A stretch of DNA of 54,578 nucleotides from Deltaproteobacteria bacterium (GCA_016930215.1 JAFGHH010000322.1:1-54578); one strand, 5' to 3'. Shown: positions 971 to 37,302, counted from the stretch's first letter. Notes: a model not told the origin generated them from the sequence alone. Numbers and translations are program-made.

Positions 971-1021
971 CGGGGGGATCCTACGACATGCGGCGGCGCC
1001 CGGATACGGCGCGCGCGGCGG

Positions 1022-2029: not shown

Positions 2030-2205
2030 GTGATCCTCGCGGCTCCGCCGCCCGGCGGCGGACCACTTCGGCCCATAGGGGAAACCGATCGTTCCGTCAA
2101 TCGTGCGAGCCGAACTCGGCGACTGCTCGCGGTCGGCCGCTTGACCCGGCGTGCGGCGGACTGTCAGACTCCTGGGGGCCGGGCGAGCCGGCCAGGGGAT
2201 GCGGC

Positions 2206-3750: not shown

Positions 3751-3858
3751 TGCGGGCGCGGAGCGCCGGGCGGCGGCGGCACGGTCGGATCGGGCCCGGC
3801 GCCGCGCTGCAGGGGCGCAGGGGGCTGCGCCACGCGGCGCGCGAAGCGGCATCCTCGG

Positions 3859-6656: not shown

Positions 6657-6663
6657 GCCCTTC

Positions 6664-7842: not shown

Positions 7843-7942
7843 GGCTCACCGCTAGCAGATCGATGCGATCGGGACAAGGCGGAGGGACGAATCCGGCGCA
7901 GGGATTGCTCCCTCGGCGCGGCTGTGCCAAGTTGGCCCCGGG

Positions 7943-7956
7943 AGCGCCCGGGCGCT
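7943..7956 (+). promoter_or_regulatory. perfect 14-nt palindrome AGCGCCCGGGCGCT 20 nt upstream of ATG 7976
   Basis: Read directly from the sequence. It lies in the 133-nt divergent intergenic region between 6664..7842 and 7976..9808. Confidence 0.25.
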
Positions 7957-7975
7957 TCCCCGTGCCGGACGCGCG

Positions 7976-19238: not shown

Positions 19239-20599
19239 TGGCCGGCGGCTCGACGCGCCTGCTGGACGACCTGCGCCGGGCCCTGGAGGTCGCGGCCGGA
19301 AGCTCCGGATGGTCCGTCGGCAGGCCGGTCCTCGCCGACCGCCTCCGCGTGCCGGTCTCCCGGCCGGCCGGTGCCCGCCCGGCGCTCGAGCTCGTGGTCG
19401 AGCAGCGGAGTCCGGCCGCGGCGACCGGCGGCTACGCCGAGGTGGGCGGCTTCCGGTTGTTCTACGCGGCCCCGCGGAACGCGCCGCTCCCGCCGTCCGA
19501 CTCCGTCCCCGTCGCGACGCTGATGGACGCGCTGGTCCGGTGGCTGCGCACTTCCGAGAACGCTCTTGCCGCGCTGTGGACCGTCCGACGGAAGCGCGGG
19601 CGGGGGGGCGGCGGCGCCGCGCCACGCGGCCGGTCGGACCCCCGGACGTCGCGCGTCCTGGAGCCGGGATACGGGCTCGAGCGCGAGCAGATCCTCCGTG
19701 TCGAGTTCCGCTGCAACCAGCGCTGTCCGTTCTGCTTCGTCCGGATCCGGCCCCATCGGCCGGAGTGGGAGACGATCCGGAGGGCCCTCGACCGGGCCAC
19801 GGGCGACCGGCCCGGGGCGAACATCGTCCTCTCCGGGGGCGAGCCGACGTTGCACCCGGAGCTGCTGGAGCTGGTGGCGCGGATCCGCGCGCGCCGGCCG
19901 CGGCGCCTGGTGCTGCAGACCAACGCGGTCCGGCTGGCCGACGCCGGCTTCGCGGACCGGCTGCACGCCGCGGGCGTCCTCATCCACTTCGTCTCGCTGC
20001 ACTCGCACCGCGAGGAGACCTACGACCGGATCACGCGGACGTCGGGGCAGTTCCCGAAGGCGATCCGGGGCATTCGGAACCTGCTCGCCTACGCCGACGC
20101 GGCCGTCACGCTGAACATCCTGGTGAACCGGCTGAACGTCCGCTCGCTGTCCGGGTACGTCCGGTTCGTGGGCCGGTTGCGCGGGGCGGACGGCCGGCCG
20201 CCCGGCCTGTTCTTCACGGTGATGAACGACGTGGGCCTGGCCCGGGCTCCCGAGCTGGCGGTCCCGCTGGAGACGGTTGCGCCTGCGCTGGCTCGCGCCG
20301 TCGCGCTCTGCGCGGAACTGGGCATCCGAGTGGACCCGTTCACCGGCGAGTGCGCGCCGCCGCTCTGCGTGCTGCGGGACCCGGCGCCCTACGCGCGGAA
20401 GTCCGAGGACGGGTTCCGCGGGGCGCTCTACGTCGAGCCCGGCGCGGAGTTCGCGCCGCACCGGCGGGTGAAGCGGGTCGAGTGCCGGACGTGCCGGTAC
20501 GACGCGGTGTGCGTGGGGGTCAGCGGCGCCTACGCGCGACGGTTCGGACTGGAGGCGCTGAAGCCGTTCCGCGGCCCCCGGCTGTCGCTCCACGATTGA
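19238..20599 (+). CDS. radical SAM protein (Cx2Cx5C-tail family), paralog of 13568..14920
   Basis: ATG 19238 shares one base with the upstream TGA and was chosen inside listed ORF 18488..20599. Motifs are LRVEFRCNQRCPFC, LSGGEPTLHPEL and a C-terminal CRTCRYDAVC...GLEALKP. Confidence 0.8.
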   Translation: MAGGSTRLLDDLRRALEVAAGSSGWSVGRPVLADRLRVPVSRPAGARPALELVVEQRSPAAATGGYAEVGGFRLFYAAPRNAPLPPSDSVPVATLMDALVRWLRTSENALAALWTVRRKRGRGGGGAAPRGRSDPRTSRVLEPGYGLEREQILRVEFRCNQRCPFCFVRIRPHRPEWETIRRALDRATGDRPGANIVLSGGEPTLHPELLELVARIRARRPRRLVLQTNAVRLADAGFADRLHAAGVLIHFVSLHSHREETYDRITRTSGQFPKAIRGIRNLLAYADAAVTLNILVNRLNVRSLSGYVRFVGRLRGADGRPPGLFFTVMNDVGLARAPELAVPLETVAPALARAVALCAELGIRVDPFTGECAPPLCVLRDPAPYARKSEDGFRGALYVEPGAEFAPHRRVKRVECRTCRYDAVCVGVSGAYARRFGLEALKPFRGPRLSLHD

Positions 20600-22320: not shown

Positions 22321-23050
22321 GCGCCTCGGTCCGGACGTGGTCGTGCTCCAGCCGGCGGAGCAGGGCCGCCTCGGCCGGGCTGCGGCGGACGACGGCCCGG
22401 ACCGCGCCGCCGGCCATCACGAGGCGCCGGTCGGCGCGCAGCGCGATCAGCGGGTCGTGCGTGGCCACCAGCGCGATCACCCGGTGGGCCAGCAGGAAGT
22501 CGAGCGCCCGCAGGCGGTCGATCCCGGCGTTCTCCAGCTCGTCGATCAGCACCACCGGGCAGGCGCTGACCAGCACGACGTCGGCGACCATCAGCGCGCG
22601 CGCCTGTCCGCCGCTCAGGAGCGCCAGCGGCACGTCGGCGTCGAACGGTTCGCCGACCAGGCCGTTGGCCGCCGCGAGCGCTTCGGCCGCCAACGCCGCC
22701 GGCTGGGCCCGGCCGCGGTGCTCGGCGTGGAGTCGCAGGAACTCGCCGGCCGTGGCGTCGAGGTAGAAGCCCATCGCCTGGCTCAGGCGGGCCACGAGGG
22801 TTTCGGGCGTCCGTCCCCTGGAGTCCGCCCCCTCGAGGCGCACGCGCCGGCCGGAGGGCGAGTCGCCGCGCGCCAGGCGTTCGACGTCGGCCAGCAGCCG
22901 GGTCTTGCCCGAGCCGGTGGGGCCGACGACGGCCAGCACCTCGCCGGCCTTCACCTGGAGGAGGCGCACGGGCTCCGGCTTGCCGTCCTTGCCGGTCCCA
23001 CCCTCGACGAGCAGCCGCAGCGAGCGGGGTCGAGCCTTCCCGGTCTTCAT
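22241..23050 (-). CDS. ABC-type ATPase (no adjacent permease)
   Basis: ATG 23050 (MKTGKARP...) is in an ATGA overlap with the upstream stop. It has Walker A GPTGSGKT, signature LSGGQ and Walker B VVLIDE. Confidence 0.75.
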   Translation of the reverse strand: MKTGKARPRSLRLLVEGGTGKDGKPEPVRLLQVKAGEVLAVVGPTGSGKTRLLADVERLARGDSPSGRRVRLEGADSRGRTPETLVARLSQAMGFYLDATAGEFLRLHAEHRGRAQPAALAAEALAAANGLVGEPFDADVPLALLSGGQARALMVADVVLVSACPVVLIDELENAGIDRLRALDFLLAHRVIALVATHDPLIALRADRRLVMAGGAVRAVVRRSPAEAALLRRLEHDHVRTEALKDRLRRGAPVVSRRAPRGVRRDPAR

Positions 23051-23685
23051 CGGATCCCTCCCCGGCACAGTGCGCAGCTTCCCCGCGGCAGGGGATGACG
23101 CAAGTGCTCCTCCGGCAGCAGCTCGATCGGCGGCAGCTTCCGCAGCCACGCCGCCAGCGCCTCGACCCCCTCACCGGTCAGGCCGTTCACCTCCAGGATC
23201 GGCAGCCCGGGCCGCAGGCGTCGGAGGACCGACCGCAGCACCTCGCGCTCGGCCTGGCTGACCAGCTCGCCCCGGGTCAGGACGACCGCATCGGCGCCCT
23301 CGATCAGCGGTCGCATCTTGGCCGGCGCGCGGAGGTTGCAGGCGGTCGACAGGACGCACAGGCTCGGGACGCGGCGCAGGAACGGGCTGCAGCGGTCGCA
23401 GAGGCCGGCGGTCTCGACGACGGCGAGGTCGGCGCCGCGCGCGGCGGCCCCGACGGCGAAGTCGCCGATCGCGACGGCGGTGTGGTGGTCCGGGCACAGC
23501 TCGCGGCTCAGCGTGACCTGCAGCTCGACGCCCGCGGCGCGGTACGCTTCCCGGTCGTGCGCGACGAGGCAGTCGCACTTGAGCGCCGCGACGCGGAGGC
23601 CGCGGCGCGCGAGGCGGCCGAGGGCCCGGGCGAGCACGGCGGTCTTGCCGGAGGCGGGCGGGCCGGCGGCGATCACCAGGCGCAC
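23047..23685 (-). CDS. G3E-type P-loop GTPase (HypB/UreG/CobW-like metallochaperone candidate)
   Basis: GTG 23685 is preceded by GGAGGAGG and was chosen inside listed ORF 23047..25599. Motifs are VIAAGPPASGKT, VETAGLCDRCSP, VVLTRGE and a C-terminal CALC. Confidence 0.65.
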   Translation of the reverse strand: MRLVIAAGPPASGKTAVLARALGRLARRGLRVAALKCDCLVAHDREAYRAAGVELQVTLSRELCPDHHTAVAIGDFAVGAAARGADLAVVETAGLCDRCSPFLRRVPSLCVLSTACNLRAPAKMRPLIEGADAVVLTRGELVSQAEREVLRSVLRRLRPGLPILEVNGLTGEGVEALAAWLRKLPPIELLPEEHLRHPLPRGSCALCRGGIR

Positions 23686-25028
23686 GGTGCCTCCTCCCGT
23701 GGGCCGTGCGGCACCGGTCGCAGCTCGTCCGTGCCGTACAGGTTCGCGTACGCGCGGTAGACGCCGAGGCAGCCGCGGCGGTGGACGCACGTCGCGCAGC
23801 CCGGCGGCTTGTGGCGCAGGAAGTCCAGGCCGGCGCGGTGCTGCAGGCTCCGGTCGCCCAGATCGACAACGTCGAAGATCGACATGTAGCGCTCCATGTC
23901 CCATTCGCGGTGCGCCGGCATCACGCAGGCCGGGACGCCGCGGAAGGTGAGCGGCAGGCCCAGGCGCCGGGCCTCGTCGAGCGCGGCCTCGAGGTGCGGG
24001 GTCGCCTCGGTCAGGCGGGGCACGAGCGCTCGGCGGTGCGCCCAGGCGTTCTCCTCGGGCATCACGAAATCGATCGCGGGGAGGTAGAGCCCGCGCCGGT
24101 CCCGCGCCAGCTCGGCGAGCAGCCGCACCAGCTCGGGCAGCAGGTGCATGTTGAGCCGGGTCAGCACCGAGATGCTCCCGACCACCAGCTCGTCGTGCGC
24201 CATCACGCGCCGGATGCCGTCCAGCACCTGGGTGTAGGCGTCGCGGCGCCAGAGCCGCCGGGAGACCGCGGGGTCGGGGGCGTCGAACGAGAAGCCGACG
24301 GCATCGACGCCGGCCTCCAGCAGCCGCTCGAGGTTGCGGCCCGCGCCGAGCAGGCTGGCGTTGGTGACGAGGATCACCCGCCGGTAGCCGAGCGCGCGTC
24401 CGCGCCGGATGATGCGCAGGAGGTCCGGGTGCAGCGACGGCTCGCCGCCGGTCAGCGACAAGCATTCCAGTCCGAGGCGGCGACCGTGGTGCAGGTCGGC
24501 CTCGAGCGCCTCGAGGCTGCGCGTGCTGCGCTTCTCGTGGCCCAGCAGGCAGTAGCGGCAGTTGAAGTTGCAGCGCGTTCCGAGGCGCAGATCCAGGTAC
24601 GGGAAGAGGGCGCGGAGATACGCGGTCACCGCCCGCGGCGGCGGCGGACCGTCGTCGGCGTGGGCGCGCTCCCGCGGGCTGATCACGGTGATCGAAGGGC
24701 GGCCGACCGCCTCGCGGACCTCGCGCAGGATTTCCAGCTCGAGCGCCAGGCGGTCGCCGTCGAGGTCGGTCCCGGCCGCGGTCCGTCGCGCGAGTCGCTC
24801 CAGCGTCTCGGCGTCGGCCAGCCCGTAGCGGCGGTCCCGGTCCGTCCCCCGTTCGATCAAGCCGTGCGAGCGCAGCTCGTCGAGCGCTGCGGGAACGACC
24901 TTCGGCTCGAGCCGGGCGAGGTGGGCGAGCCGGGCGTGCGGCTCGCGGCGGAACTGGAGGAACGACAGCAGCAGCGCGGAGGCCGCGGGCGAGAGCCGCC
25001 AGATCTTCGTCAGGGCTTCGAGCTCCAT
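23673..25028 (-). CDS. radical SAM protein with N-terminal winged-helix-like domain (Cx2Cx5C-tail family)
   Basis: 451-aa listed ORF. Motifs are VVPAALDELRSHGLIERG, LGTRCNFNCRYC, LTGGEPSLHPDL and a C-terminal CATCVHRRGC...GTDELRP. Confidence 0.8.
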   Translation of the reverse strand: MELEALTKIWRLSPAASALLLSFLQFRREPHARLAHLARLEPKVVPAALDELRSHGLIERGTDRDRRYGLADAETLERLARRTAAGTDLDGDRLALELEILREVREAVGRPSITVISPRERAHADDGPPPPRAVTAYLRALFPYLDLRLGTRCNFNCRYCLLGHEKRSTRSLEALEADLHHGRRLGLECLSLTGGEPSLHPDLLRIIRRGRALGYRRVILVTNASLLGAGRNLERLLEAGVDAVGFSFDAPDPAVSRRLWRRDAYTQVLDGIRRVMAHDELVVGSISVLTRLNMHLLPELVRLLAELARDRRGLYLPAIDFVMPEENAWAHRRALVPRLTEATPHLEAALDEARRLGLPLTFRGVPACVMPAHREWDMERYMSIFDVVDLGDRSLQHRAGLDFLRHKPPGCATCVHRRGCLGVYRAYANLYGTDELRPVPHGPREEAPCAW

Positions 25029-25055: not shown

Positions 25056-25835
25056 TCAGAGGTCCAGGATTCCGACGCGCTGCCGTCCGAGGCAGTAGGA
25101 ACAGTAGAACTGGGGCAGACCGGCGCGCAGCCCGTCCTTCCCCGGGCGCCCGAGCAGCGCCGCCGTCCGTTTCCACAGCGCCTCGGCCCCTTCGCCGGTG
25201 AGGCCGTCCAGCGTGAGCGCGGCGGTCCGGCCCAGGTCGCGCGCCGCCGCGAGCAGCATCTCCCGCTCGGCGGGCGTGACCCGGTCCGGTCGGGTCAGCA
25301 CGCAGAGATCGCACGTCGTCAGCATCGGCCCGACCTTGGCGAGCGCCCCGCGGCCGGCGGACGCGTCGGCCGCAAACAGCGCCGCGCCGCGGACCGGGTA
25401 CGGGCTGCAGCGGCAGCAGAGCCCGGCGCTCTCCACGAGCAGCAGGTCCGCGTGCTCGCCCGCCGCCCAGTCCCGCATCTCCGGCAGGGCGAGGGCCAGC
25501 ACGTGGTCCGGGCAGGTGTCGCCGGCGGTCCAGCGCCGCCAGGGGACCGCGCGCGGCCCGGCGGTCGTCCAAACCGGGCGCGGTTCTGAAGGGAAGCACT
25601 CCAGCGCGGCGACGGCCGGCCGCCGAGACGCGGCCAGGGCCCGGCGGCCGAGCCAGCGGAGCACCGCCGACTTGCCGCTCGACGGGAACCCCGCCACCAC
25701 GACGCAGTCCACGGGCACGACGGCGGCGTCCGGACGCGAAGCCGGGCGACGCGTCGTCCCTCCGCTTCTCCCCGGTCCGCCGAGTTGTCTCGCTCCCACG
25801 TCCCGGACGCTACCATTCGTGGTGGATCGCGGCAA
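25056..25835 (-). CDS. G3E-type P-loop GTPase, paralog of 23047..23685
   Basis: Motifs are VVAGFPSSGKS, VESAGLCCRCSP, CVLTRPD and a C-terminal CSYC. The listed TTG start at 25835 is uncertain. In-frame GTGs at 25718 and 25712 would give an N-terminus like the paralog. Confidence 0.6.
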   Translation of the reverse strand: MPRSTTNGSVRDVGARQLGGPGRSGGTTRRPASRPDAAVVPVDCVVVAGFPSSGKSAVLRWLGRRALAASRRPAVAALECFPSEPRPVWTTAGPRAVPWRRWTAGDTCPDHVLALALPEMRDWAAGEHADLLLVESAGLCCRCSPYPVRGAALFAADASAGRGALAKVGPMLTTCDLCVLTRPDRVTPAEREMLLAAARDLGRTAALTLDGLTGEGAEALWKRTAALLGRPGKDGLRAGLPQFYCSYCLGRQRVGILDL

Positions 25836-25850
25836 CGGCGGGCGACCCGT

Positions 25851-27017
25851 CTACGGCGGCGGAATCATGCCGCGCTCGACTTCGATCCCCGGCAACTCGA
25901 GCGCTCCGAGCTCGAAGACGTCCGCGGCGTCGAGCAGCTCCGCCACGATGGCCGGGAGGGCGTCGGCGCAGCGCACGTGGGACCCGGTCGGGGCGACGTG
26001 CTCGCGCAGCAGCGTCCCGGCGGCGCTCGGTTGGCCGGCGGTCGCCGTGCCGGGTCCGAGGATCGCGTGGACCAGCGCGGCGCAGGTCCGCCGGCGCGAC
26101 GGCTCGGCCAGCGCCTCGCAGCGCGAAACGTCGCGCGCGGCCAGCGCGCGGCAGACCGGCCCGGACCACCGTTCGGCGGGATCCCGGCCGTCGAGCTCCA
26201 CGCAGGACGCCTCGTCCTGGCCGTGAAGCGCGACCAGCCAGATCCGTTCGTCGTTCTGCCGGCTCCACGTCCAGCCGAAGGCCCGGCCCACGGCGCTCGG
26301 CAGGCTCAGGCTCTGCGGCCGCGCCCGCGCCAGTCGGACCAGGTGCGCCACCGACAGGCAGCACGCGCCGTCGCCGTTCCCGTCGACATCGAGCCGATCG
26401 CAGTCCGTCCAGCCGCCCTCGAGCGTCCGGCAGACGGCGCCCCAGAAGGCGGCCTCCCGCAGCAACGGCTCGAGCAGCTCGGCCCCGACCGGCGCGGCGT
26501 CGGGAACCTCGGCGCAGCGGCGCGCGAGGTCCGCGGCGATCCTCGGGATGTCCTCCAGCGCCAGGTCCAGGGCGAGGCGCAGCGCCTGCGCCTGCAGGTC
26601 GGCGCGGAGCGCCGCCAGGGCCTCGCCGAGGCGCGCGTGGGCTTCCGCCATCCGGCGCATGTTCTCCCGCGCCGCCGTGCGCTCGGGCGGCTCGCCGCAG
26701 TGCTGGCCGGGGTCGACGAAGGGCACGGCCTCGAGCGTGGGGCCGCCGTCCGCGGGCTCGAGCGGTGCGGCGGCGCCGTCGTGGGAGACCGACGGTGCGG
26801 CGGCATCCTCGCCCGTTGCCGGCGGTGCGGGGGCGTCGGGCTCCCGGTCCGCGGATCCGGTCGTCGCCTCCGGCGGGGCATCGTCGGTCTGCCCTGCGGT
26901 CTGCTTCGTCGGCGAGCCGTCCGGCTGCCGGCGCTCGACGCGGGCGGAGCGGCAGGCGCCGGCCGCGGCGAGCAGGATCGCGAGGAGTCCCCAGCGGGCG
27001 AGCGTGCGGGTTTGCAT
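25851..27017 (-). CDS. lipoprotein, unknown function
   Basis: 388-aa listed ORF. MQTRTLARWGLLAILLAAAGAC is a signal peptide with a lipobox-like AAGAC. A Pro/Asp/Ala-rich linker follows, then a Cys-containing domain. Confidence 0.6.
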   Translation of the reverse strand: MQTRTLARWGLLAILLAAAGACRSARVERRQPDGSPTKQTAGQTDDAPPEATTGSADREPDAPAPPATGEDAAAPSVSHDGAAAPLEPADGGPTLEAVPFVDPGQHCGEPPERTAARENMRRMAEAHARLGEALAALRADLQAQALRLALDLALEDIPRIAADLARRCAEVPDAAPVGAELLEPLLREAAFWGAVCRTLEGGWTDCDRLDVDGNGDGACCLSVAHLVRLARARPQSLSLPSAVGRAFGWTWSRQNDERIWLVALHGQDEASCVELDGRDPAERWSGPVCRALAARDVSRCEALAEPSRRRTCAALVHAILGPGTATAGQPSAAGTLLREHVAPTGSHVRCADALPAIVAELLDAADVFELGALELPGIEVERGMIPPP

Positions 27018-27057: not shown

Positions 27058-27828
27058 TCAGCGCAAGGTGCCGCGGGCCCGGCCGCCCCGGCGTTTCGGC
27101 TCGCGGCGGTGGACGAGCAGCGCGAGGTCGGAGACGCCCTCCCAGCGGACGCGCGGATGGACCCGCAGCCACTCGCGCGCGGTCCGTGTGCGGACCTGGC
27201 TGGCGAACGGGAAGCGCGGTCCGGCAGTCTTGGTCAGATCGAAGAACAGGCTGACGCGGCGGTCGCCGCCGCCGCGGGCGGCGATCCGGCGCAGGCAGTC
27301 CGGCAGGTCCGCCACGGGCAGGAAGACCACGATCGGCTCGGTCGTGCGGGCCAGCGCCTCGCGCATCGCCGGGGCCAGGCGCCCGTCCGCGGGGCGGCAG
27401 AAGAAGGCGAAGGTGAAGCTGTTGCCGAGGTCCCCGGTCCACTCCACGCCGCTCAGCGAGAGCAGCGTCGTGAGGGCCGACGGGCCGGCCAGCGGGACGA
27501 CCCGCACGCCGCGCTCGCGGAGCTCCGCGACGACCCACGCGCCGGGGTCGCAGAAGCAGGGGGCGCCGCCGCCCGCGAGCAGGCCGACGTCCTCTCGCTC
27601 CAGTAGTCCCAGGACGCGTCGCCGGAAGGCGTCGTGCGGAGCCGGCGGCAGGCGCAGCAGAAGCCTGCCGGGGGCGCCCCGGGGGAGCAGGCGCGCCAGC
27701 TCCCGCCGGGTCGTCGGCGGGTCCTCGACCAGCAGCACGCGCAGGCGGCGCAGCGCCTGCAGGACGTTGACGGTCAGGTCCCCGTGGTCGCCGAGGTGCC
27801 AGGGCATCAGGAACAGGCGGCCGGTCAT
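27058..27828 (-). CDS. RsmI-like / tetrapyrrole-methylase-fold SAM-dependent methyltransferase
   Basis: ATG 27828 is in an ATGA overlap with the upstream stop. GRLFLMPWHLGDHGDLTVNVLQALRRLRVLLVED and GGAPCFCDPG resemble RsmI/TP_methylase motifs. Confidence 0.65.
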   Translation of the reverse strand: MTGRLFLMPWHLGDHGDLTVNVLQALRRLRVLLVEDPPTTRRELARLLPRGAPGRLLLRLPPAPHDAFRRRVLGLLEREDVGLLAGGGAPCFCDPGAWVVAELRERGVRVVPLAGPSALTTLLSLSGVEWTGDLGNSFTFAFFCRPADGRLAPAMREALARTTEPIVVFLPVADLPDCLRRIAARGGGDRRVSLFFDLTKTAGPRFPFASQVRTRTAREWLRVHPRVRWEGVSDLALLVHRREPKRRGGRARGTLR

Positions 27829-30146
27829 CGAGCCCTCCCCGTGCCGCGCGTCACGGCGTCGAACCGGTAGAAGCCGGGACAGCCCGCCGCGAACGGGCAC
27901 CCGCGACAGCGCGCGTCGCGCCGCCGCTTCTTCGCCAGCCAGGTCTGGAGGTTGACGCCGGTCTCGCCGACGAAGACCATCGCGCGCTCGGCCTTGCCGA
28001 AGTCGGCGAGCGCGGCGCGCTCGTGGCCCGGCAGCAGGCACGGCGGGCAGTTCACGACCTGGATCGCCAGTCCCGGCGGCGCTCCGTCGAGCAGCGCGCC
28101 GAGGTGCCGGCGCAGCGCCGCCTCCGACGGCACGTGCGACGCGCGCGCCCGGCCGAACGGGGTGACGACCTGCACGTTCCAGCGGGCGACGCCGAGACGC
28201 GCCAGCAGTCGCGCCAGCGCCGGGAGCGCGGCGAGGTTGCGGCGCACGACGGTCGTGTTGACGGCGACCCGCACGTCGTCGCCCGCGGCGGCGAGCAGGC
28301 TGCGCAGTCCGGTGACGGTCTGGGCGAAGCTGCCCGGGGCGCGCGTCAGCTCTTCCTGCCGTGCGCGCGTCGGCGCGTGGAGCGACACCAGCACCTCGGT
28401 GACCCCCGCGCGGACCAGCGCCGCCGCCACGCCCGGCAGGCTGAGCGTCCGGCCGTTGGTGGTGACGGCGATCCGCGCGTAGCCCAGGTCGCGGGCCGCG
28501 GCGACGAGCGTCGTGAGGTCCGGGTGCAGCGTCGGCTCGCCGCCATCGATGTCGAGCAGGTCGAAGCCGCGTTCGCGGTGGCGGCGCAGGGCGGCAAGCA
28601 CGTCGGCGGTCCGGGCGTCTCGGGCCGGGCGGTCGCCCACCGCGCAGAACACGCAGCGGTTGTTGCAGCGGTAGGTCAGGTTGACGATCACCTTGCGCTC
28701 GCGCGTCGCGGCGTCGGGGGCGTCGAGCGCGGCGAGCGCCCGCCGGAGGAACGCGGGGTCGAACTCGCGCGTCGTCAGGCCGCCGGTGCGGAACGCGGCG
28801 TGGAGGTCGGCATCGTCGTCGGCCGGCGTCCCGGCCCGGCGCGCCAGCTCGGTTCCGGGCAGCGGCACGGCGAGCTGCAGCAGCGGCTCGACGCCGCGCG
28901 TGCGCCGCAGGCGGGCGAGGAAGCGGATCGTCCGCACGATCTCCGCCCGCCGCTCGCCGGGGATGCCGATCATCCCGTGCACCCCGAGCGGCACCCCCTC
29001 GGCCGCGCACCATGCCGCCACGCGCTCGACCGCGGCCGGGTCGAGGTTCTTGTGCAGTACGCGCCGCTGGACGCGCGGGACGGCGCTCTCCAACGAGACC
29101 TTGAGCGTGGAGACCAGCGGGCGGAGCCGGCGGACGTGGCGGCGTTGGAGGCGGTCCGCGCGCAGGCCGTTCGGAAACTCGAGCCGCAGCCCGTGCCGCT
29201 CGGCCAGGGCGAGCAGTCGGTCGAAGCGCCGCTCGTCGAGGTTCGCCAGCTCGTCGAGGACCACCAGGCGCCGCAGGCCGAGCGTGCGGACCCAGCGGCC
29301 GACGTCACGCTCGACGCGGACCCACGGGAACGAGCGGACCTGGCGCCGCGGCTCGGGCAGGCCGGGGTTCTTCGAGCAGAAGATGCAGCCGTAGGGGCAG
29401 CCGCGCGTGGTGACCAGCGGCAGCGTCTCGGCGGGCTCGGGCGGGAACGGTCCGGGGCGCCAGGGCGTCGCCAGGACGCGGCGCAGGAAGCCGAACACGG
29501 CCGGCGCGTCGAGCAGCTCGTAGGCGGGCAGCGGCACGTCGTCGAGCGGGAAGGCGACGCGGTTCTCGCGGACGGCGCGGGCGGGCCGGACGCCGGCCTC
29601 CAGCTCCGTGGCGAGGCGGTCGAGCAGCGGCTCGGCCTCGTAGCGTAGCAGCAGGTCGAGCCGCGGGTTCGCGGCGAGCAGGGCGGCGCCGTCGTACTCG
29701 ACGTAGTGCATGCCGCCGACGACCAGGTCGGCGCAGGCCAGCGTGCCGGCCGCGGCGGGCACCGCGTCGAGCAGTCGGGCGAGCCACGGGCGGCCGGGAC
29801 CCGTGGTCAGGAACGGGCTGCCGGCGACCACGGTCAGGTCGGCGCGCAGTCCGGCGAGCCGGTCGAGGAACGGGCGGGCCGGTCGGCCGAGCCAGGCGTG
29901 ATCGGCATGCCGCAGGAGCGCCGCGTCGGGGCCGGCCAGTCCGTCGAGCAGCTCGACGCGCCAGCCGCGGGCGAGCAGCACGGCGGCGGCCTGGCAGGCG
30001 CCGAGGTGGGTCAGCCACGGGTAGTCGATGAACTCCGTCGAAAGGCGCAACGGAGGCAATACGACCGCGGCGCGAAGCGGCGAGCCGGGGGGTGGGGCCG
30101 CGGTCCGGCGGGCGGCGCCGGCGCCGGCGCCGCGGGCGGCGGTCAC
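27825..30146 (-). CDS. fusion protein with two radical SAM cores (class-B N-half + Cx2Cx5C-tail-family C-half)
   Basis: GTG 30146 is in a GTGA overlap and was chosen within listed ORF 27825..31598, giving about 773 aa. The N-half is B12-binding-like with TTRGCPYGCIFC. The C-half has NLTYRCNNRCVFC, IDGGEPTLHPDL and a terminal CRGCPFAAGC. Confidence 0.75.
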   Translation of the reverse strand: MTAARGAGAGAARRTAAPPPGSPLRAAVVLPPLRLSTEFIDYPWLTHLGACQAAAVLLARGWRVELLDGLAGPDAALLRHADHAWLGRPARPFLDRLAGLRADLTVVAGSPFLTTGPGRPWLARLLDAVPAAAGTLACADLVVGGMHYVEYDGAALLAANPRLDLLLRYEAEPLLDRLATELEAGVRPARAVRENRVAFPLDDVPLPAYELLDAPAVFGFLRRVLATPWRPGPFPPEPAETLPLVTTRGCPYGCIFCSKNPGLPEPRRQVRSFPWVRVERDVGRWVRTLGLRRLVVLDELANLDERRFDRLLALAERHGLRLEFPNGLRADRLQRRHVRRLRPLVSTLKVSLESAVPRVQRRVLHKNLDPAAVERVAAWCAAEGVPLGVHGMIGIPGERRAEIVRTIRFLARLRRTRGVEPLLQLAVPLPGTELARRAGTPADDDADLHAAFRTGGLTTREFDPAFLRRALAALDAPDAATRERKVIVNLTYRCNNRCVFCAVGDRPARDARTADVLAALRRHRERGFDLLDIDGGEPTLHPDLTTLVAAARDLGYARIAVTTNGRTLSLPGVAAALVRAGVTEVLVSLHAPTRARQEELTRAPGSFAQTVTGLRSLLAAAGDDVRVAVNTTVVRRNLAALPALARLLARLGVARWNVQVVTPFGRARASHVPSEAALRRHLGALLDGAPPGLAIQVVNCPPCLLPGHERAALADFGKAERAMVFVGETGVNLQTWLAKKRRRDARCRGCPFAAGCPGFYRFDAVTRGTGRAR

Positions 30147-31729
30147 TTGCGGCGGGCGCCCTTCTTCGCCCGGCGCGGCGGGGCCGCGGCCGGTCGGGCC
30201 TTCGCGCGTGCGGCGGGCTTGCCGGCGCGGCGCGGCTCGAACACGCTCGAGCGATCGCGCACCTCGGTCCAGCGGCGCAGCAGCTCCGACAAGCCCGGTT
30301 CGGCCAGGCGCTGGAACAGGTAGTCCAGCATGCCGAGCATGATCCTGCAGCGGTCGTTGGTCGCGCAGCGGGCCACCAGGTCGCCCTGCTCGACGTAGTT
30401 GTAGACCGGGCAGACGCCGCAGTACGGGGCGTAGGCGCAGTCGGCGCAGCCGGGCAGGCATTCCAGGCACGAGGAGACGCACAGCGAGCGGACGGTCGGG
30501 TGGGCGATCAGGTCGGCGTACGTGTGCCGGTGGACGTCGCCGATGCAGAACAGGTCGTCGCCCATCGCGCCGACCATCCGGCCCTCGTCGCAGGTGTAGA
30601 CGCGTCCGTCGTGGTTGTAGGCCAGCTGGCCGATCGCGGCGCCGCAGGGCGAGCGCAGGTCGGCGTAGTTCGGGTCGTCGTCGGTGAGGATCCGCGTCAG
30701 CAGCAGGGCGGCCATCTTCTCGGCCATCTCGATGCCCTGCCGGTTGAGCTCGAGGATGTGGTCGAGGGCGCGGGTCCAGAAGCGGAGGAACTCGTCGGCG
30801 GTGTACCCCTCGCGGGCCCAGATCTTCCGGCCCATGCCGAACGGGTTGAGCGGCCGCAGGTGGACCACCTTCTGGCCCATCCGGACATACTCGTCGACCA
30901 GCGCCTCGGGCCGCGCCAGCGACCCGCGCGAGACGGTGACCAGCGCGTTGACGTAGGCCAGCGCGGGGTCGAGCCGGCGCTTGCGGTAGGCGGCATCGAA
31001 CCGCGCCATCGCGGCCCGGGTCTTGCGGTGGCTCCCGCCGCCGGGCAGCCGGCGGTGGCGGTCGTGCAACTCCGCGGGACCATCGATCGAGGTGCAGACC
31101 GCAACCCCCTGGTCGACCAGATAATCGATCTGGGCCTGGGTCAGGGTCGTGAGGTTGCTGACCAGGCTGAAGTAGAGGTGCTTCGAGCCGTCCGCGGTGC
31201 GGCGCCGCCCCTCCTCGACGAACCAGCGCAGCACCGGGAAGTTGAGCGCCGGCTCGCCGCCCTGGAACTCGATCGTCAGGTCCGGCGCCGGACTCGCGAG
31301 AATCACGTCCAGCACGCGCGCGGCGGTCTCGAGGCTCATGTCGAACCCGGCGCGACGCTCGGGCTGCCGGCTGGCGTGGCAGTAGGTGCAGGCGTGGTTG
31401 CAGCGCAGGGTCAGGACCACGACATGGAGGGTCGGCCCGACCTGCAGGTGATGGCTGCGGCGCCGCACCCGCTCGACAACCCGCGCCTCGACGGCGGCGT
31501 CGTGGAGCATTTCGGTCCGGGCCAGCTCGGCCCACAGCGGGTGGTCGGCCTTCAGCTTTCCCGCCATCAGCGCCTCGAACGGCTCGCGATCGAGCCACAG
31601 GTAGTCGCCGCCGTCGTTCGTCACCAGCACCCGTCCGCCGAGCTCCCGCCAGCGCACGGGCATCAGGTCGGGCTTCCGGTCGGGTTCGGGGCCGGGCTTC
31701 CGGCCACGCGCGGGACGTCGGGCCTTCAT
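30143..31729 (-). CDS. radical SAM/SPASM maturase (HxsB / anaerobic-sulfatase-maturase-like)
   Basis: ATG 31729 (MKARRPARG...) is in an ATGA overlap. Motifs are LTLRCNHACTYC, FQGGEPAL and a SPASM-type array (YNHDGRVYTCDEG ... CLECLPGCADCAYAPYCGVCP). The N-terminal LVTNDGGDYLWLDREPFEAL is reminiscent of HxsB-type maturases, from memory. Confidence 0.8.
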   Translation of the reverse strand: MKARRPARGRKPGPEPDRKPDLMPVRWRELGGRVLVTNDGGDYLWLDREPFEALMAGKLKADHPLWAELARTEMLHDAAVEARVVERVRRRSHHLQVGPTLHVVVLTLRCNHACTYCHASRQPERRAGFDMSLETAARVLDVILASPAPDLTIEFQGGEPALNFPVLRWFVEEGRRRTADGSKHLYFSLVSNLTTLTQAQIDYLVDQGVAVCTSIDGPAELHDRHRRLPGGGSHRKTRAAMARFDAAYRKRRLDPALAYVNALVTVSRGSLARPEALVDEYVRMGQKVVHLRPLNPFGMGRKIWAREGYTADEFLRFWTRALDHILELNRQGIEMAEKMAALLLTRILTDDDPNYADLRSPCGAAIGQLAYNHDGRVYTCDEGRMVGAMGDDLFCIGDVHRHTYADLIAHPTVRSLCVSSCLECLPGCADCAYAPYCGVCPVYNYVEQGDLVARCATNDRCRIMLGMLDYLFQRLAEPGLSELLRRWTEVRDRSSVFEPRRAGKPAARAKARPAAAPPRRAKKGARRK

Positions 31730-31926
31730 GGCTCCACCATCAGGCAGGACAGGGCGTAGTTGGAGAATTCGTCGAGCAGCCGATCGCGGACCGCGGGGTC
31801 GATGGCGGAGAATCGGACCGTCCACCGGCGTCCCTCGCGGCGCGTCTCGATTTCGGCCAGGTGGGCGAACGCCTGCCGGGTCCGGTCGAGCGCCGACTCG
31901 GAGTAGACGGCGGTGTCCAGGTGCAG
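31726..31926 (-). CDS. HxsD-like small ORF lacking a canonical start (CTG start, or degenerate duplicate)
   Basis: A coding-like frame reads VLHLDTAVYSESALDRTRQAFAHLAEIETRREGRRWTVRFSAIDPAVRDRLLDEFSNYALSCLMVEP and ends in an ATGA overlap with the next gene. There is no in-frame ATG, GTG or TTG between the upstream stop (31946) and this segment, only CTG at 31926 and 31920. Confidence 0.3.
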   Translation of the reverse strand: MHLDTAVYSESALDRTRQAFAHLAEIETRREGRRWTVRFSAIDPAVRDRLLDEFSNYALSCLMVEP

Positions 31927-31945
31927 GACGGCGGGAGCCGATCGG

Positions 31946-32404
31946 CTAGCGCCGTTTCTTGCTCTTCTGCTTGGCCTTGCGCTTGTCACCGTACTTCTCC
32001 TCCCAGGGCACCGCGATACCCAGGGGGTCGTCCTGGAAATCGAGCGGGTCGGAGGCCGCCGCGGGCGCCGCGGCCTCGGCCGCCGGTTCCGGGTCGGCCG
32101 AGAGCAGGGCGCGTCCGACGATCGCGGCCCGTAGCGAATCGGTCCGCTCGGCGACCTGGTGGCGGACGAGCTGGTGCAGCAGCTCGTTGCGGAACTCGCC
32201 CGCCAGCGCGGCCAGCGCCGCCGGCGCCAGCGGCTCCTTGCCTTTGAGCCGGACGGACAGCCGTTGCCGCGGGTGGGTCTCGACCAGCACGTAGCAGCGG
32301 TCGAGGAACCGGTAGGCGGCGGCCAGCCCGACCGGACGCGGAAACACGCCTTCGTCGAGCAGCACGTCGACGCTGTTGGCCTTCCTGTCGACCTTGGGAT
32401 CCAT
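31946..32404 (-). CDS. HxsD-like small protein with acidic/Lys-rich tail
   Basis: ATG 32404 (MDPKVDRK...) has GGAAGG upstream and lies within listed ORF 31946..32485. VFPRPVGLAAAYRFLDRCYVLVE...LAGEFRNELLHQLVRHQVAERTDSLRAAIVGRAL fits my recollection of HxsD-type proteins. Confidence 0.6.
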   Translation of the reverse strand: MDPKVDRKANSVDVLLDEGVFPRPVGLAAAYRFLDRCYVLVETHPRQRLSVRLKGKEPLAPAALAALAGEFRNELLHQLVRHQVAERTDSLRAAIVGRALLSADPEPAAEAAAPAAASDPLDFQDDPLGIAVPWEEKYGDKRKAKQKSKKRR

Positions 32405-32456
32405 GGAGTCGGCACCTTCCGGCGGGCGGCGGCGAAGGCGCCGCCCCCGCCGATGG

Positions 32457-32485
32457 AAACTGTCACGCACCCCCGGGGGTGTCAA
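32457..32485 (-). promoter_or_regulatory. putative promoter (TTGACA-N17-CAGTTT) overlapping a perfect 14-nt palindrome CACCCCCGGGGGTG (32468..32481)
   Basis: Read on the minus strand about 50 nt upstream of ATG 32404. The -10 hexamer is weak, keeping only the A2 and T6 consensus positions. Confidence 0.25.
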
Positions 32486-32509: not shown

Positions 32510-33604
<1,095 letters not shown>

Positions 33605-33702
33605 CGGAGCTGCCTCCCGGGTTCGATCCCCGCCGCAACTCTGGCACAACCCGCGAGCGTCGGCAAAGGGGTCGGGGTCGCGCCGCGCGGCGGGAGCCCG
33701 AC

Positions 33703-36024
33703 TCAAGGGTCGGCGTCGAGGATCCTGCGGACCCGGGTGCGCAACTCGGTCGGCCCGAACGGCTTGGACACGAACGGAACGCCGGAACTGCCCGTGCCGT
33801 CGTGGAACGCGGCGTCGTCGGCGTGGCCGGACATGAACAGGACCCGCAGCGCCGGGCGAGCGGCGATCAGCCGTTCGGCAAGCTGCCGACCGCCGAGCTC
33901 GGGCATGACCACGTCGGTGAGCAGCAGGTGGATCGCGTCGGGGTGCTCCGCGGCCAGTTGGAGCGCCTGGCGGCCGTCGGCGGCGAGCAGGACGCGATAG
34001 CCTGCGCTGCGCAGGACGTTCGCCGCGAGATTGCGGACCTGCTCGTCGTCCTCGGCGACCAGCACCGTCTCGGTGCCGCCGGGCGGGCTCTCGGCCGCCG
34101 CCGGGCGGTCCGATTCGTCCCGCGGCTGGTCCTCGGCGACCGGCAGGTAGACCTCGACGGTCGTTCCGCGTCCGACCGCGCTGCGCACCGCGAGTCCGCC
34201 GCCGCTCTGGGCCACGATGCCGTAGACCGTGGGCATTCCGAGGCCGGTGCCGCGGCCGGCGACCTTGGTCGTGAAGAACGGCTCGAACAGGTGCGCCAGC
34301 GTCTCCTCGCTCATCCCGCAGCCGTCGTCCTCGACGGTCAGCCGGATGTACGGGCCCGGGGGCAGCGTGGCGAGCGCGGGGGGCGGCGGGGAGCCGAGCT
34401 CCAGCCCGGCGGTGGCGATGGTGAGATGGCCGCCATCGGGCATGGCGTCGCGCGCGTTGACGGCCAGGTTCACCAGCACCTGTTCGATCTGCCCTGGATC
34501 GGCGTGGACCGCGCCCAGCTCGGGGGCCAGGTCGAGCTGCAGCAGGATGTCCTCGCCGAGGAGCCGGCACAGCAGCTTCTGGACGTCGACGACCAGGCGA
34601 TTGAGGTCGAAGGTCACGGGGTTCAGGACCTGGCGACGGCTGAAGGCGAGCAGCTGGCGGGTCAGCCCGGTGGCGCGCCGGGCGGCGTGGCGGATCTGCT
34701 CCAGGTCCTCGCGCGACGGGTCGTCCTCGCGGAGCCGCTCGAGGGCGAGGGCGGAGCAGCTCTGGACCACCGTGAGGATGTTGTTGAAGTCGTGTGCCAA
34801 GCCCCCGGCCAGCCGGCCGACCGCCTCCATCTTCTGCGCGTGCAGCAGCTGCTGCTCCAGCCGTCGCCGCTGCTCCTCGGCCTGGCGGCGCTCCGTGACG
34901 TCACGCGCCGCCGCGTAGATCACCTTGCCCTGGGACAGCCAACGCCACTCGATCCAACGATACGAGCCGTCCCGGCAGCGGCAGCGGTTCTCGAAGCTCA
35001 GGACCGACTGCTGCCGCTCGAACTGGACGACGCGCGCCACGGTCGCGGGGAGGTCGTCCGGGTGGACCAGGTCGAGGAACCGGCGTCCTTCCAGCTCCGC
35101 CAGCGGATAGCCGAGCGTCCGCTCCCACTGGGGATTGAGCCGCCGGAAGCACCCGTCGGTGTCGGTGATGCAGAACAGGTCGAGGCTGCTCTCGAAATAG
35201 CGGTCCAGCTCCTCCGACTTGCGGCGCAGCTCCTCCGCCGCGCGCTGCCGCTCGCGGAGGTCGCTGGCGATGCTGAGCAGGGCGGGCCGGCCCATCCAGG
35301 TGGTCAGGCGGACCGACACCTCGAGCGGCAAGCTCGAGCCGTCCTTGCACCGGTGGCGCACCTCGAAGGTCGCGGTGCCCTGCTCGCGGAGCGCGCGCAT
35401 CCGGGCTTCGATCAGCGTCGCGCTCTCCGGCACGTCGATCTCGTGCAGCCGCAGCGCCAGGAACTCCTCGCGGGTGTAGCCGTGGAGCCGGAAGGTCATC
35501 TCGTTGGCGTAGAGGAAGCTGCCCTCGAAGTCGTGGACCGTGATCGAGCTGGGGGCGTGGTCGAGCAGCTCGGCCATCACCCGCATCCGCTCCGCCGCGC
35601 GGTGCTGCTCGCTGATGTCGGTCATCACGGCGATCGAGCCGCCGAAGCCGCCCGCGGCGTCGCGCAAGGGCGTCGCCGAGACGCGGCAGCGCAGCTCGCT
35701 CCCGTCGGCGCGACGGAAGCGGTGCTCGTACCGCTGGCCTTCGCCCCGTCGGCGCGCCTGCATCCGCTCGTGGTGCGCCGCCAGATCCTCGTCGAACATG
35801 AAGGACTCGACCGTGCGCCCGAGCAGCTCGGCGGGAGCCCCGTAGCCCAGCAGCTCGACCAGCCGCCGGTTGACGTAGACGGTCTCGTGGCGGGCGTTCA
35901 TCGCCCACACGCCGTCCTCCGTCATCTCGAGCAGCGTGGTGCCCAGCGCGGCGAGGGCAGAATCGCCCGGCGTGTGGCTTGGCGGTCGCTCGTCGTTCTC
36001 CGCGTCTGGCTCCAAGTGCCTCAA
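33703..36024 (-). CDS. PAS-domain hybrid sensor histidine kinase with C-terminal receiver
   Basis: 773-aa listed ORF. It has multiple PAS-like segments, the H-box HAQKMEAVGRLAGGLAHDFNN, ATPase boxes (NARDAMPDGG, DDGCGM, GTGLGM), and a receiver domain (VLVAEDDEQVR...TDVVMPELGG). Confidence 0.9.
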   Translation of the reverse strand: MRHLEPDAENDERPPSHTPGDSALAALGTTLLEMTEDGVWAMNARHETVYVNRRLVELLGYGAPAELLGRTVESFMFDEDLAAHHERMQARRRGEGQRYEHRFRRADGSELRCRVSATPLRDAAGGFGGSIAVMTDISEQHRAAERMRVMAELLDHAPSSITVHDFEGSFLYANEMTFRLHGYTREEFLALRLHEIDVPESATLIEARMRALREQGTATFEVRHRCKDGSSLPLEVSVRLTTWMGRPALLSIASDLRERQRAAEELRRKSEELDRYFESSLDLFCITDTDGCFRRLNPQWERTLGYPLAELEGRRFLDLVHPDDLPATVARVVQFERQQSVLSFENRCRCRDGSYRWIEWRWLSQGKVIYAAARDVTERRQAEEQRRRLEQQLLHAQKMEAVGRLAGGLAHDFNNILTVVQSCSALALERLREDDPSREDLEQIRHAARRATGLTRQLLAFSRRQVLNPVTFDLNRLVVDVQKLLCRLLGEDILLQLDLAPELGAVHADPGQIEQVLVNLAVNARDAMPDGGHLTIATAGLELGSPPPPALATLPPGPYIRLTVEDDGCGMSEETLAHLFEPFFTTKVAGRGTGLGMPTVYGIVAQSGGGLAVRSAVGRGTTVEVYLPVAEDQPRDESDRPAAAESPPGGTETVLVAEDDEQVRNLAANVLRSAGYRVLLAADGRQALQLAAEHPDAIHLLLTDVVMPELGGRQLAERLIAARPALRVLFMSGHADDAAFHDGTGSSGVPFVSKPFGPTELRTRVRRILDADP

Positions 36025-36192
36025 GAAACCCCCGACCGAGCCCGATTATCGGGCGTGCGGTGGACACGGTCAAGCGAGCGCGGCGCGTCGTTCGGCGCGC
36101 TTGCCGTTCGATCGGCCGCGTGCGATCATCGCAGGTCGATGGACGGTGGCGGGCCGGGTGGGGCGAGCCCGGCGGACTCGGCGGAGGGCTCG

Positions 36193-37302
36193 ATGACGAC
36201 GGAGGGGGAGCGGGACCCCGCGGCGCACGGCGACCAGACGCGGGTCCTGTACGTCGACGACGATCCGGACCTGGGCCGCGCCGTCCAGCGCGTGTTGGCG
36301 GCCGTCGGGATGCCGATCGACTTCGCCGAGGACGCCGAGCGGGGACTGGAGATGCTGGCGCGGTGTGAGTACGCCGTCGTCGCCTCGGACCTGCGGATGC
36401 CCGGGATGGACGGGATCGCGTTCCTCGAGCAGGTGCGACAGCTCTACCCCGACACGGTCTGCATCCTCGTCTCGGGACAGGCCGACGTCAACGCGGTGTC
36501 GCAGGTGATTCGGCGAGTCGGCGTGTTCCGGTTCCTGGTCAAGCCCTGGGACAACGAGGACCTGCGCTCGGCCGTGGCGCGGGCCTGCGAGCAGTTCGAG
36601 CTGAGGCGCCAGAACCGGTGGCTGGTCGAGGCGCTGGAGCGCAACAACGCCGAGCTGAGCCAGGTGAACCGGTCGCTCGAGGCCGAGGTGCACCGCCGGA
36701 CGGTCGACGTCCTGTTCGGACTGCTCAATGCGCTCGACCTGCGCGACACCGAGACCCAGGGCCACTCGCGGCGGGTCGCGTTGTACGCCCGCCGGCTGGC
36801 CGGGCAGCTCAAGCTGCCGCCGCCGGAGGTGCTGATCGTCGAGCGGGGGGCGCTGCTGCACGACCTGGGGAAGATCGGCGTTTCGGACACGATCCTGCTC
36901 AAGCCCGGCAAGCTGACCGAGGAGGAGTGGGTCGAGATGCGCCGGCACACCCTGTACGGGCACGAGATCCTCCGCTCGATGGACTTCCTGGGCGATGCGC
37001 GCCTGGTGGTACGCAGCCACCACGAGCGGTTCGACGGGACCGGCTACCCGGACGGCCTGAAGGGCGCGGCGATCCACATCGGCGCGCGGATCTTCGCCGT
37101 GATCGATACCTACGACGCGATGACCTCCGACCGCCCCTACCGCAAGGCGCTGCCGAACCGCGTGGCTCGCGAGGAGATCGTCAAGCAGCGCGGGCGCCAG
37201 TTCGATCCGGCGTGCGCCGACGCCTTCGTCGCCATCGCCGACGACGAGTTGGAGCGGATTCGCGCGCTCGTCGCCGAGTCGCCGCAGGCCGGTCTGGAGT
37301 AG
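36193..37302 (+). CDS. response regulator with HD-GYP domain (c-di-GMP phosphodiesterase type)
   Basis: ATG 36193 is preceded by GGAGGG; ATG 36139 is an alternative. The receiver domain is RVLYVDDDPDL...SDLRMPGMDG...KPW. The HD-GYP domain is HSRRVALYA, LLHDLGKIGV and HHERFDGTGYPDGL. Confidence 0.9.
   Translation: MTTEGERDPAAHGDQTRVLYVDDDPDLGRAVQRVLAAVGMPIDFAEDAERGLEMLARCEYAVVASDLRMPGMDGIAFLEQVRQLYPDTVCILVSGQADVNAVSQVIRRVGVFRFLVKPWDNEDLRSAVARACEQFELRRQNRWLVEALERNNAELSQVNRSLEAEVHRRTVDVLFGLLNALDLRDTETQGHSRRVALYARRLAGQLKLPPPEVLIVERGALLHDLGKIGVSDTILLKPGKLTEEEWVEMRRHTLYGHEILRSMDFLGDARLVVRSHHERFDGTGYPDGLKGAAIHIGARIFAVIDTYDAMTSDRPYRKALPNRVAREEIVKQRGRQFDPACADAFVAIADDELERIRALVAESPQAGLE

Follow-up and report, generated by a model that had tools for sequence, protein, structure and literature searches.

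A conserved protein with two radical SAM cores in a putative Hxs-type operon of a deltaproteobacterial contig

In the antiphage HXS system, HxsB and HxsC are both required for the maturation of the protein HxsA, and HxsC binds HxsD (PMC13128918). The genes are arranged as HxsD-HxsB-HxsC with HxsA after HxsC, a change of +8 Da consistent with +C/-4H has been mapped to an SHRSS motif, and 99.7% of the described systems are found in Pseudomonadota (PMC13128918). Here we describe a related locus on a contig of 54,578 nucleotides recorded under Deltaproteobacteria bacterium (GCA_016930215.1 JAFGHH010000322.1:1-54578), hereafter the window, from whose first letter all positions are counted. Its minus-strand gene at 27825..30146 encodes one protein with two radical S-adenosylmethionine (SAM) cores of different subfamilies, which we refer to as the fusion. 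The C-terminal half of this protein (C-half) resembles HxsC in having a CX3CX2C triad, a GGEPT motif, NxPxCLLP and a CX2CX5CxGF tail, and in its position directly after HxsB; however, the N-terminal domain of HxsC is replaced in the fusion by an entire second radical SAM enzyme (N-half). The locus further differs from the HXS system in that no HxsA follows the fusion in the window and in that the host is apparently a member of the Myxococcota.

The HxsA4, HxsC4 and HxsD_rel models in NCBIfam represent a variant Hxs system that is already curated and is unpublished. All three are relevant here, as HxsC4 is the top match of the C-half, a 74-residue gene of the window passes HxsD_rel and fusion-bearing loci pass HxsA4. 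The fusion itself falls below the HxsC4 cut-off; the two-core protein is currently annotated only as 'radical SAM protein' and no curated model covers its two modules. A functional precedent is FbiC, the CofG-CofH fusion that acts as FO synthase, in which two radical SAM domains generate two separate 5'-deoxyadenosyl radicals within one pathway, and whose equivalent in other organisms is a pair of separate proteins (PMC11917521). The present fusion likewise has two radical SAM domains in one polypeptide and known split forms, but FbiC is unrelated to it in sequence, partner domains and pathway. Further, the product of FbiC is a small-molecule cofactor, whereas the fusion is set in an Hxs-type protein-maturation operon and has relatives with at least three cores. 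We conclude that the two-core protein is a real variant of an Hxs-type maturase and that the dual-core principle is already known from FbiC. Our literature search on tandem or dual radical SAM proteins, HxsC4 and HxsD-like proteins returned no description of the present two-core family. MJ0619 was considered as a second precedent and dropped, as the source in question (PMC9433317) concerns, by its title, the discovery of tetraether lipid synthase and not a two-core radical SAM protein.

The fusion gene and its parts are as follows.
27825..30146, minus strand: fusion gene, 773 residues from GTG at 30146, stop TGA at 27825-27827.
29547..30074, minus strand: Rossmann-like, 'B12-binding-like' domain, about residues 25-200, from the AlphaFold2 (AF2) model and Foldseek.
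28827..29429, minus strand: radical SAM core of the N-half, about residues 240-440, with an AprD4 profile match and an invariant triad.
28695..28826, minus strand: short helical junction, residues 441-484, predicted local distance difference test score (pLDDT) 79-95.
28077..28694, minus strand: HxsC-like radical SAM core of the C-half, about residues 485-690, with a Pfam stretch at 488-643 and a GGEPT motif.
27828..28076, minus strand: putative C-terminal auxiliary-cluster region with Cys703 and CX2CX5C.

The window has a G+C content of 70-78%, and because long spurious open reading frames (ORFs) are common at such values, ORF length alone is no proof of a gene. The 773 codons of the fusion form an uninterrupted frame, which is still open upstream of the GTG. 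G+C at third codon positions (GC3) in this frame is 0.88-1.00 per 150-nt bin from 27900 to 30149, with a single exception in the bin 29850-29999, where a second frame ties with it, and beyond the gene on both sides the lead in GC3 passes to other frames. An earlier note on this DNA, made from the sequence, had proposed that a single gene joins two full radical SAM cores from distinct subfamilies and had advised checking 28700..29000 for a frameshift and running domain models. GC3 per frame in the 150-nt bins stays in one frame there, with no switch, and a Pfam run gave two separate Radical_SAM (PF04055) stretches in the protein (E = 8.9e-35). The motifs quoted in that note (CPYGCIFC, CNNRCVFC, IDGGEPTLH and CRGCPFAAGC) sit where it had placed them, and the proposal of two complete cores is borne out by the invariance of both Cys triads in 60 diverse homologues.

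At the upstream junction (AAGTGACC) the TGA of HxsB overlaps the GTG of the fusion at 30146 by 4 nt, and at the downstream junction (CGATGACC) the TGA of the fusion overlaps an ATG at 27828, also by 4 nt. Both overlaps had been claimed and both are present in the sequence, the upstream one on the premise that GTG 30146 is the start. The protein recorded for this contig has 741 residues, which fits an alternative start at 30050 and would leave a gap of 93 nt between HxsB and the fusion. The GTG start is backed by the predicted N-terminus 'MTAAR' in the close relatives P0002 and P0007 (P0008 starts 'MTAS'), and in the close-relative locus L109 HxsB and the fusion do not overlap, with 69 nt between them. 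An exact-sequence look-up of the 773- and 741-residue products found no matching record.

The fusion is widespread. A protein search over clusters drawn from NCBI, JGI, ENA and Logan assemblies returned 82 clusters of homologues, of which about 75 cover the full length (745-790 residues), at 33-84% identity. Searched exhaustively with a profile, 1.84 billion representatives (50% identity) yielded 251 proteins at E <= 1e-30, and about 50 of the best 150 representatives carry both halves in a single aligned stretch. Scanning one genome per species, we found at least 185 genomic relatives, nearly all of them Myxococcota; cultured carriers include Chondromyces apiculatus, Enhygromyxa salina, three Nannocystis species and Polyangium. 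Across 60 diverse aligned members (24-83% identity), Cys250/254/257, Cys494/498/501 and Cys703/747/750/756 are all invariant, and the junction (residues ~441-480), the least conserved internal segment, is nevertheless aligned essentially gap-free across the family. Given this spread over clusters and genomes, the invariant cysteines and the gap-free junction, the fusion is genuine and an artefact is excluded. An AF2 model of the whole 773-residue chain, built on the family alignment, has a pLDDT of 93.1 and a predicted template modelling score (pTM) of 0.89, which fits two modules held at a fixed orientation to each other. The earlier note had called tandem radical SAM fusions uncommon, which is true in general, but the present one is a large conserved family with three-core and longer relatives.

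The N-half has the architecture of enzymes with a B12-type domain. The AF2 model predicts alternating strands and helices with pLDDT >90 over residues ~25-200, followed by a radical SAM core whose CX3CX2C triad is CPYGCIFC (29376-29399, Cys250/254/257). In Foldseek searches of the PDB the N-half matches AprD4 (6fd2) and MgmA (9ccb) over ~480-505 columns with template modelling (TM) scores of 0.66-0.67 normalised to the target, followed by CysS, TokK and TsrM, the alignments overall spanning ~450-505 columns. These enzymes share with the N-half the same two-domain fold, a Rossmann-like domain and then a radical SAM barrel, but identity is only ~20% and none of them has a second radical SAM core. 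A sequence-profile search against the PDB finds AprD4 over residues 222-458 (E = 6e-26), and the NCBIfam matches are all to B12-domain radical SAM families, including AprD4, P-methyltransferase, ladderane-lipid, PhpK, HpnJ, ApyD and MgmA, each far under its cut-off. Judged by the predicted structure, the N-half is thus 'B12-binding-like' at the level of the fold. The domain had been described in those words before; fold and profile agree with an AprD4/MgmA type, whereas the Pfam B12-binding model (PF02310) has no match in the window's fusion at E <= 1 and is found only below threshold in 23 of 60 relatives (best E = 1e-4). Fold neighbours of the N-half mix cobalamin enzymes (MgmA, TokK, TsrM) with AprD4, and to our knowledge AprD4, the best structural match, is not cobalamin-dependent. 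Methylation, which had been offered as an example of the chemistry, would therefore be only one of several options, possible if cobalamin is bound. Invariant residues other than cysteine are at least as many in the N-half as in the C-half (for example N302, N326, S351, E353, H390 and E398), and BLASTP within the window found no close paralogue of the N-half.

By its architecture, the C-half belongs with HxsC. Its CX3CX2C triad is CNNRCVFC (28644-28667, Cys494/498/501), Cys703 (28038-28040) lies within NCPPCLLPG, and the CX2CX5C of the tail is CRGCPFAAGC (27879-27908, Cys747/750/756). The top NCBIfam matches are HxsC4 (NF038332, 119.4 bits, curated cut-off 500 bits), covering only model positions 10-201 of 335, and HxsC (TIGR03977, 80.2 bits, cut-off 267.9 bits). 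A pairwise alignment to an annotated HxsC from a Roseomonas plasmid pairs residues 490-760 of the fusion with 121-378 of HxsC at 29% identity, and runs from the triad through the C-terminus. Because this canonical HxsC shares the NxPxCLLP and CX2CX5CxGF elements, the CX2CX5C tail is, by alignment, an HxsC signature. By the same comparison, the first module takes the place of the ~115-residue N-terminal domain of canonical HxsC. Cys703 and the CX2CX5C probably bind an auxiliary Fe-S cluster. A SPASM or twitch domain was looked for and not found, as the tail does not extend to CX2CX5CX3C, there being no fourth Cys at +4 after the CX2CX5C, and Pfam gave no PF13186 match in the fusion; since the distal Cys703 is invariant, an HxsC-type auxiliary site is likely. 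Foldseek neighbours of the C-half are BlsE, SuiB, SkfB, viperins and MoaA, and the PDB profile match is to BlsE over residues 463-676 (E = 1.6e-24). On antiphage function, PADLOC gave only generic radical SAM cross-matches to its viperin (pVip) models. The C-half had been assigned to a family of paralogues with this tail, and three such paralogues are indeed present in the window (23673-25028, 19238-20599 and 13568-14920), each with an N-terminal extension of ~145 residues. The closest is 23673-25028 (BLASTP, 31% identity, E = 5e-28), and the tail is common to them and to canonical HxsC.

The following genes surround the fusion in the window.
31946..32485, minus strand: HxsD-like, opening the D-D'-B-C block; TIGR03976 44.9 bits, cut-off 50 (borderline).
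31726..31950, minus strand: HxsD_rel, 74 residues; NF038315 63 bits against a cut-off of 41.
30143..31729, minus strand: HxsB radical SAM/SPASM maturase, adjoining the fusion upstream; TIGR03978 481.7 bits against a cut-off of 370.
27058..27828, minus strand: TP_methylase-fold (RsmI-like) gene; PF00590, E = 5e-16.
25851..27017, minus strand: Cys-rich lipoprotein, 388 residues; 48-67% identity in L107, L109 and L110.
25056-25718, minus strand: CobW/HypB/UreG-like GTPase, on one side of the HxsC-like gene 23673-25028.
23673..25028, minus strand: HxsC-like radical SAM protein, 451 residues; unannotated N-terminal extension of ~145 residues, then HxsC-like core and tail.
23047-23685, minus strand: CobW/HypB/UreG-like GTPase, on the other side of 23673-25028; in relatives an ABC ATPase gene follows.
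15068-19238, plus strand: nitrogenase-like trio, between the HxsC-like paralogues 13568-14920 and 19238-20599.

The minus-strand order is therefore HxsD-like, HxsD_rel, HxsB, fusion, TP_methylase-fold gene, lipoprotein, GTPase-like gene, HxsC-like radical SAM gene and CobW-like GTPase. Because the fusion directly follows HxsB in the HxsD-HxsB-HxsC order, gene order and homology place it in the HxsC slot of an Hxs-type operon. The D-D'-B-fusion order is conserved in four independent contigs (L107, L109, L110 and L111), whose fusions are 81-84% identical to that of the window. In L107, L109 and L110 the orthologues of the HxsD-like protein carry Pfam PF27806 HxsD, and the position of HxsD_rel holds a gene of 72-91 residues in those three loci as well as in L001 and L003. 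A simple gene call had overlooked the window's HxsD_rel gene, whose stop overlaps the probable ATG of HxsB at 31729; HxsB from that ATG is shorter than the 560-residue ORF listed from 31825. The TP_methylase-fold gene is kept in three of four syntenic close relatives. The 388-residue lipoprotein has nine invariant cysteines and is located where canonical operons have HxsA; it has no HxS repeats and matched no family. Next come an ABC ATPase gene in L107, L109 and L110 and, in L109 and L110, one NifH-like and two NifD/K-like genes. The window's trio is made up of an ATPase resembling NifH/CfbC, which scores 224 bits with the nifH model (under the cut-off), and two Oxidored_nitro genes resembling NifD/K/E/N, and about 10 radical SAM genes lie within window positions 1-31700.

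Split and extended forms of the fusion are found in other genomes; the earlier note had advised a search for split ones. Standalone N-halves (466-483 residues) and standalone C-halves (298-330 residues) exist as complete proteins. One standalone N-half, P0152, lies inside a multi-radical-SAM cluster, and another, P0177, occurs in an unrelated context (L106) without an HxsC-like gene nearby; a metagenome scan with P0177 gave only distant relatives (identity <=30%). In the other direction, a third HxsC-like core is added in P0059, P0081, P0083 and P0084 (1025-1069 residues). This third core is nearest to a separate gene of 300-325 residues that lies directly downstream of the two-core fusion in L023, L042, L048, L057 and L083 (E = 1e-49 to 1e-58), and among the window's genes the third module of these triple fusions is matched best by the HxsC-like gene 23673-25028. 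Further arrangements are a tandem HxsC-like protein (P0116), a fusion with an extra N-terminal region resembling class I methyltransferases (P0088, 1031 residues) and a chain of 1951 residues with four matched stretches (P0189). Pairwise BLAST gave no resolved assignment of orthology among the many HxsC-like paralogues. Because split, three-core and longer forms exist, this fusion/fission ('Rosetta stone') pattern argues, at the level of gene architecture, that the modules act together.

In 80 genome loci we counted genes lying no more than 10 kb from the fusion. HxsB occurs in 17 of these loci, a relative of HxsD in 8, a gene for a (Ser-His-Gly)n repeat protein in 18, and at least one of the three in 25. 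The repeat proteins are ~100-280 residues long, with a leader, a conserved AQHCSHG entry, 8 to >60 SHG units and a GSW end, and score 101-144 bits on NCBIfam HxsA4 (NF038313, cut-off 55). Examples are the following.
L001, 6652-7050: SHG repeat gene.
L003, 19862-20239: SHG repeat gene.
L027, 183-878: SHG repeat gene.
L057, 3769-4182: SHG repeat gene.
The order in L001 is HxsD, an 82-residue gene, HxsB, a radical SAM gene and HxsA4. Assemblies often end or carry runs of N inside this 9-bp SHG repeat (L002, L005, L020). HxsC-like neighbours were tested against curated models and none reaches its cut-off. From this association in the genomes, the HxsA4-type (Ser-His-Gly)n protein is very probably the substrate in more distant members of the family. 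Small ORFs beside the fusion in L040 and L042 were considered as precursor peptides and rejected, as their translations resemble off-frame high-GC noise.

Taken together, we consider it probable, with moderate confidence, that the product of the gene is a truly bifunctional radical SAM enzyme in which two independent SAM-cleaving [4Fe-4S] sites in one polypeptide work with HxsB on a shared substrate. In this proposal, which draws on homology, context and the structural model, the first module (residues ~25-440) would be a Rossmann-like domain with an AprD4/MgmA/TokK-type radical SAM barrel, and the second (residues ~485-773) an HxsC-family barrel with a C-terminal four-Cys site for a probable auxiliary Fe-S cluster. 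The two-module layout, its conservation, the fold affinities, the operon setting and the split and fused forms are shown by the data above, and we infer that both sites are catalytically active; together with HxsB, the fusion would subject one protein or peptide to two radical steps in succession. The second module may perform HxsC-type chemistry and the first a further C-H functionalisation, which could be methylation if cobalamin is bound and otherwise an AprD4-like rearrangement or abstraction. The substrate would be the HxsA4 repeats in the wider family, with no such gene near the fusion in the window clade. Two consecutive steps on one substrate had been suggested in the earlier note, and they may reasonably be inferred, at that strength, from the fusion/fission pattern and the confident single-body model.

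Several observations weigh against this proposal. Any Hxs marker is present in only 25 of the 80 loci, the C-half lies far under the curated cut-offs (HxsC, 80 against 268 bits; HxsC4, 119 against 500 bits), and PF02310 gives no support for cobalamin binding by the N-half. A search of all frames for at least three HxS within 40 residues found no HxS-repeat gene in the 54.6-kb window or in six close-relative loci, and when HxsA4-like proteins were compared with the window by tblastn, the matches were no more than compositional noise in off-frame ORFs. Further, the window clade is tied to the NifH/NifDK-like trio, the CobW-like GTPases and the ABC ATPase, which could point to maturation of a cofactor or metalloenzyme.

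A less probable explanation, to which we nonetheless give appreciable weight for the window clade, is that the fusion builds a cofactor or metallocluster for the adjacent NifH/NifDK-type enzyme and that the Hxs components were recruited to this end. Next to the fusion, the clade keeps one NifH-like and two Oxidored_nitro genes, a pair of CobW/HypB-like GTPases, an ABC ATPase, the TP_methylase-fold gene and several more radical SAM genes in four independent contigs, the window and the six close-relative loci hold no HxsA-type gene, and structural neighbours of the C-half include enzymes of small molecules and cofactors (BlsE, MoaA, PqqE and, weakly, NifB). However, HxsB, HxsD and HxsD_rel are kept directly upstream, and the protein HxsA is their target in the characterised system (PMC13128918). 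Distant relatives also link the fusion to HxsA4 repeat proteins, and nitrogenase-like genes occur in only 2-3 of the 80 loci.

It would seem quite unlikely that only one half is catalytic and the other a degenerate radical SAM fold for substrate binding or scaffolding, for instance with the N-half as a recognition module replacing the canonical HxsC N-terminal domain. Neither CX3CX2C triad varies, even at 24% identity, invariant non-Cys residues are at least as numerous in the N-half as in the C-half, and standalone N-half homologues exist as separate enzymes, although the N-half does sit where canonical HxsC and the window paralogues have a non-catalytic N-terminal extension of 115-145 residues.

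We are similarly doubtful that the halves act on different substrates and are fused for co-expression or stoichiometry. Such independence would fit the origin of the halves in different radical SAM subfamilies and the standalone N-half relatives without an HxsC-like gene nearby, such as P0177 in L106, but the fusion is kept over deep divergence, further HxsC-like modules from neighbouring genes have repeatedly joined the chain, and the model shows the full chain as a single compact body at the pTM given above. Finally, a merger of two ordinary neighbours by a missed stop or an indel is hardly credible, even in sequence of 70-78% GC with frequent spurious long ORFs and with residues 441-480 the least conserved internally, given that independent predictions of the colinear two-module protein come from >80 clusters and from at least 185 genomes, which stem from many studies and include complete ones of cultured strains, and that the junction is gap-free in the alignment, keeps its GC3 in one frame and is confidently modelled.

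The bifunctional enzyme working with HxsB is thus the reading we favour, and it can be extended in a more speculative and, in our view, rather unlikely direction. Here the family would form a modular 'assembly line' whose two, three or more SAM-cleaving sites, held in one rigid polypeptide, are processive on each unit of a (Ser-His-Gly)n protein, while the window clade would have lost HxsA and been rewired to the nitrogenase-like NifH/NifDK enzyme. If true, the assembly line would produce a new densely cross-linked or methylated histidine-rich polymer, and in the rewired window clade the machinery and metallochaperone GTPases would mature a wholly different protein or cofactor. The nitrogenase-like genes of the HxsA-less clade suggest uses of Hxs-type maturases beyond the antiphage HXS system.

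Few enzymes combine two radical SAM active sites in one chain, and those that do are informative on how two radical reactions are coupled on one substrate. The present fusion is open to experiment, being conserved, confidently predicted and present in cultured Myxococcota. It joins an AprD4/MgmA-type module to the HxsC family, whose published chemistry consists only of the +8 Da change on the SHRSS motif, and the related (Ser-His-Gly)n HxsA4 proteins provide a simple, repetitive substrate on which HxsC chemistry could be resolved.

Elsewhere in the window, the left end (1-9808) has more radical SAM genes, and the cluster runs past the left end of the contig. Besides a radical SAM gene of 568 residues, this region holds the following.
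2-970: radical SAM protein with a Pfam B12-binding domain, cut by the contig end.
2206-3750: radical SAM protein with a Pfam B12-binding domain.
3859-4953: ferredoxin-domain gene.
6664-7773: SPASM-type radical SAM gene.
7976-9808: radical SAM protein resembling C-methyltransferases of ribosomally synthesised and post-translationally modified peptides (RiPPs).

Upstream of HxsD, 32510-37302 encodes a lipoprotein of 364 residues with no Pfam match, a histidine kinase with PAS and receiver domains and a response regulator with an HD domain, and the same three genes lie ahead of HxsD in L109. Rfam and tRNA scans of the window returned nothing. A near-perfect hexamer array (GATGCG x 11) is found at 44135-44202 inside the gene 43838-45367, and perfect tandem repeats with units of 12 and 17 nt occupy 49202-49346, in a stretch of ~47.3-52.7 kb with few genes by the codon-bias call.

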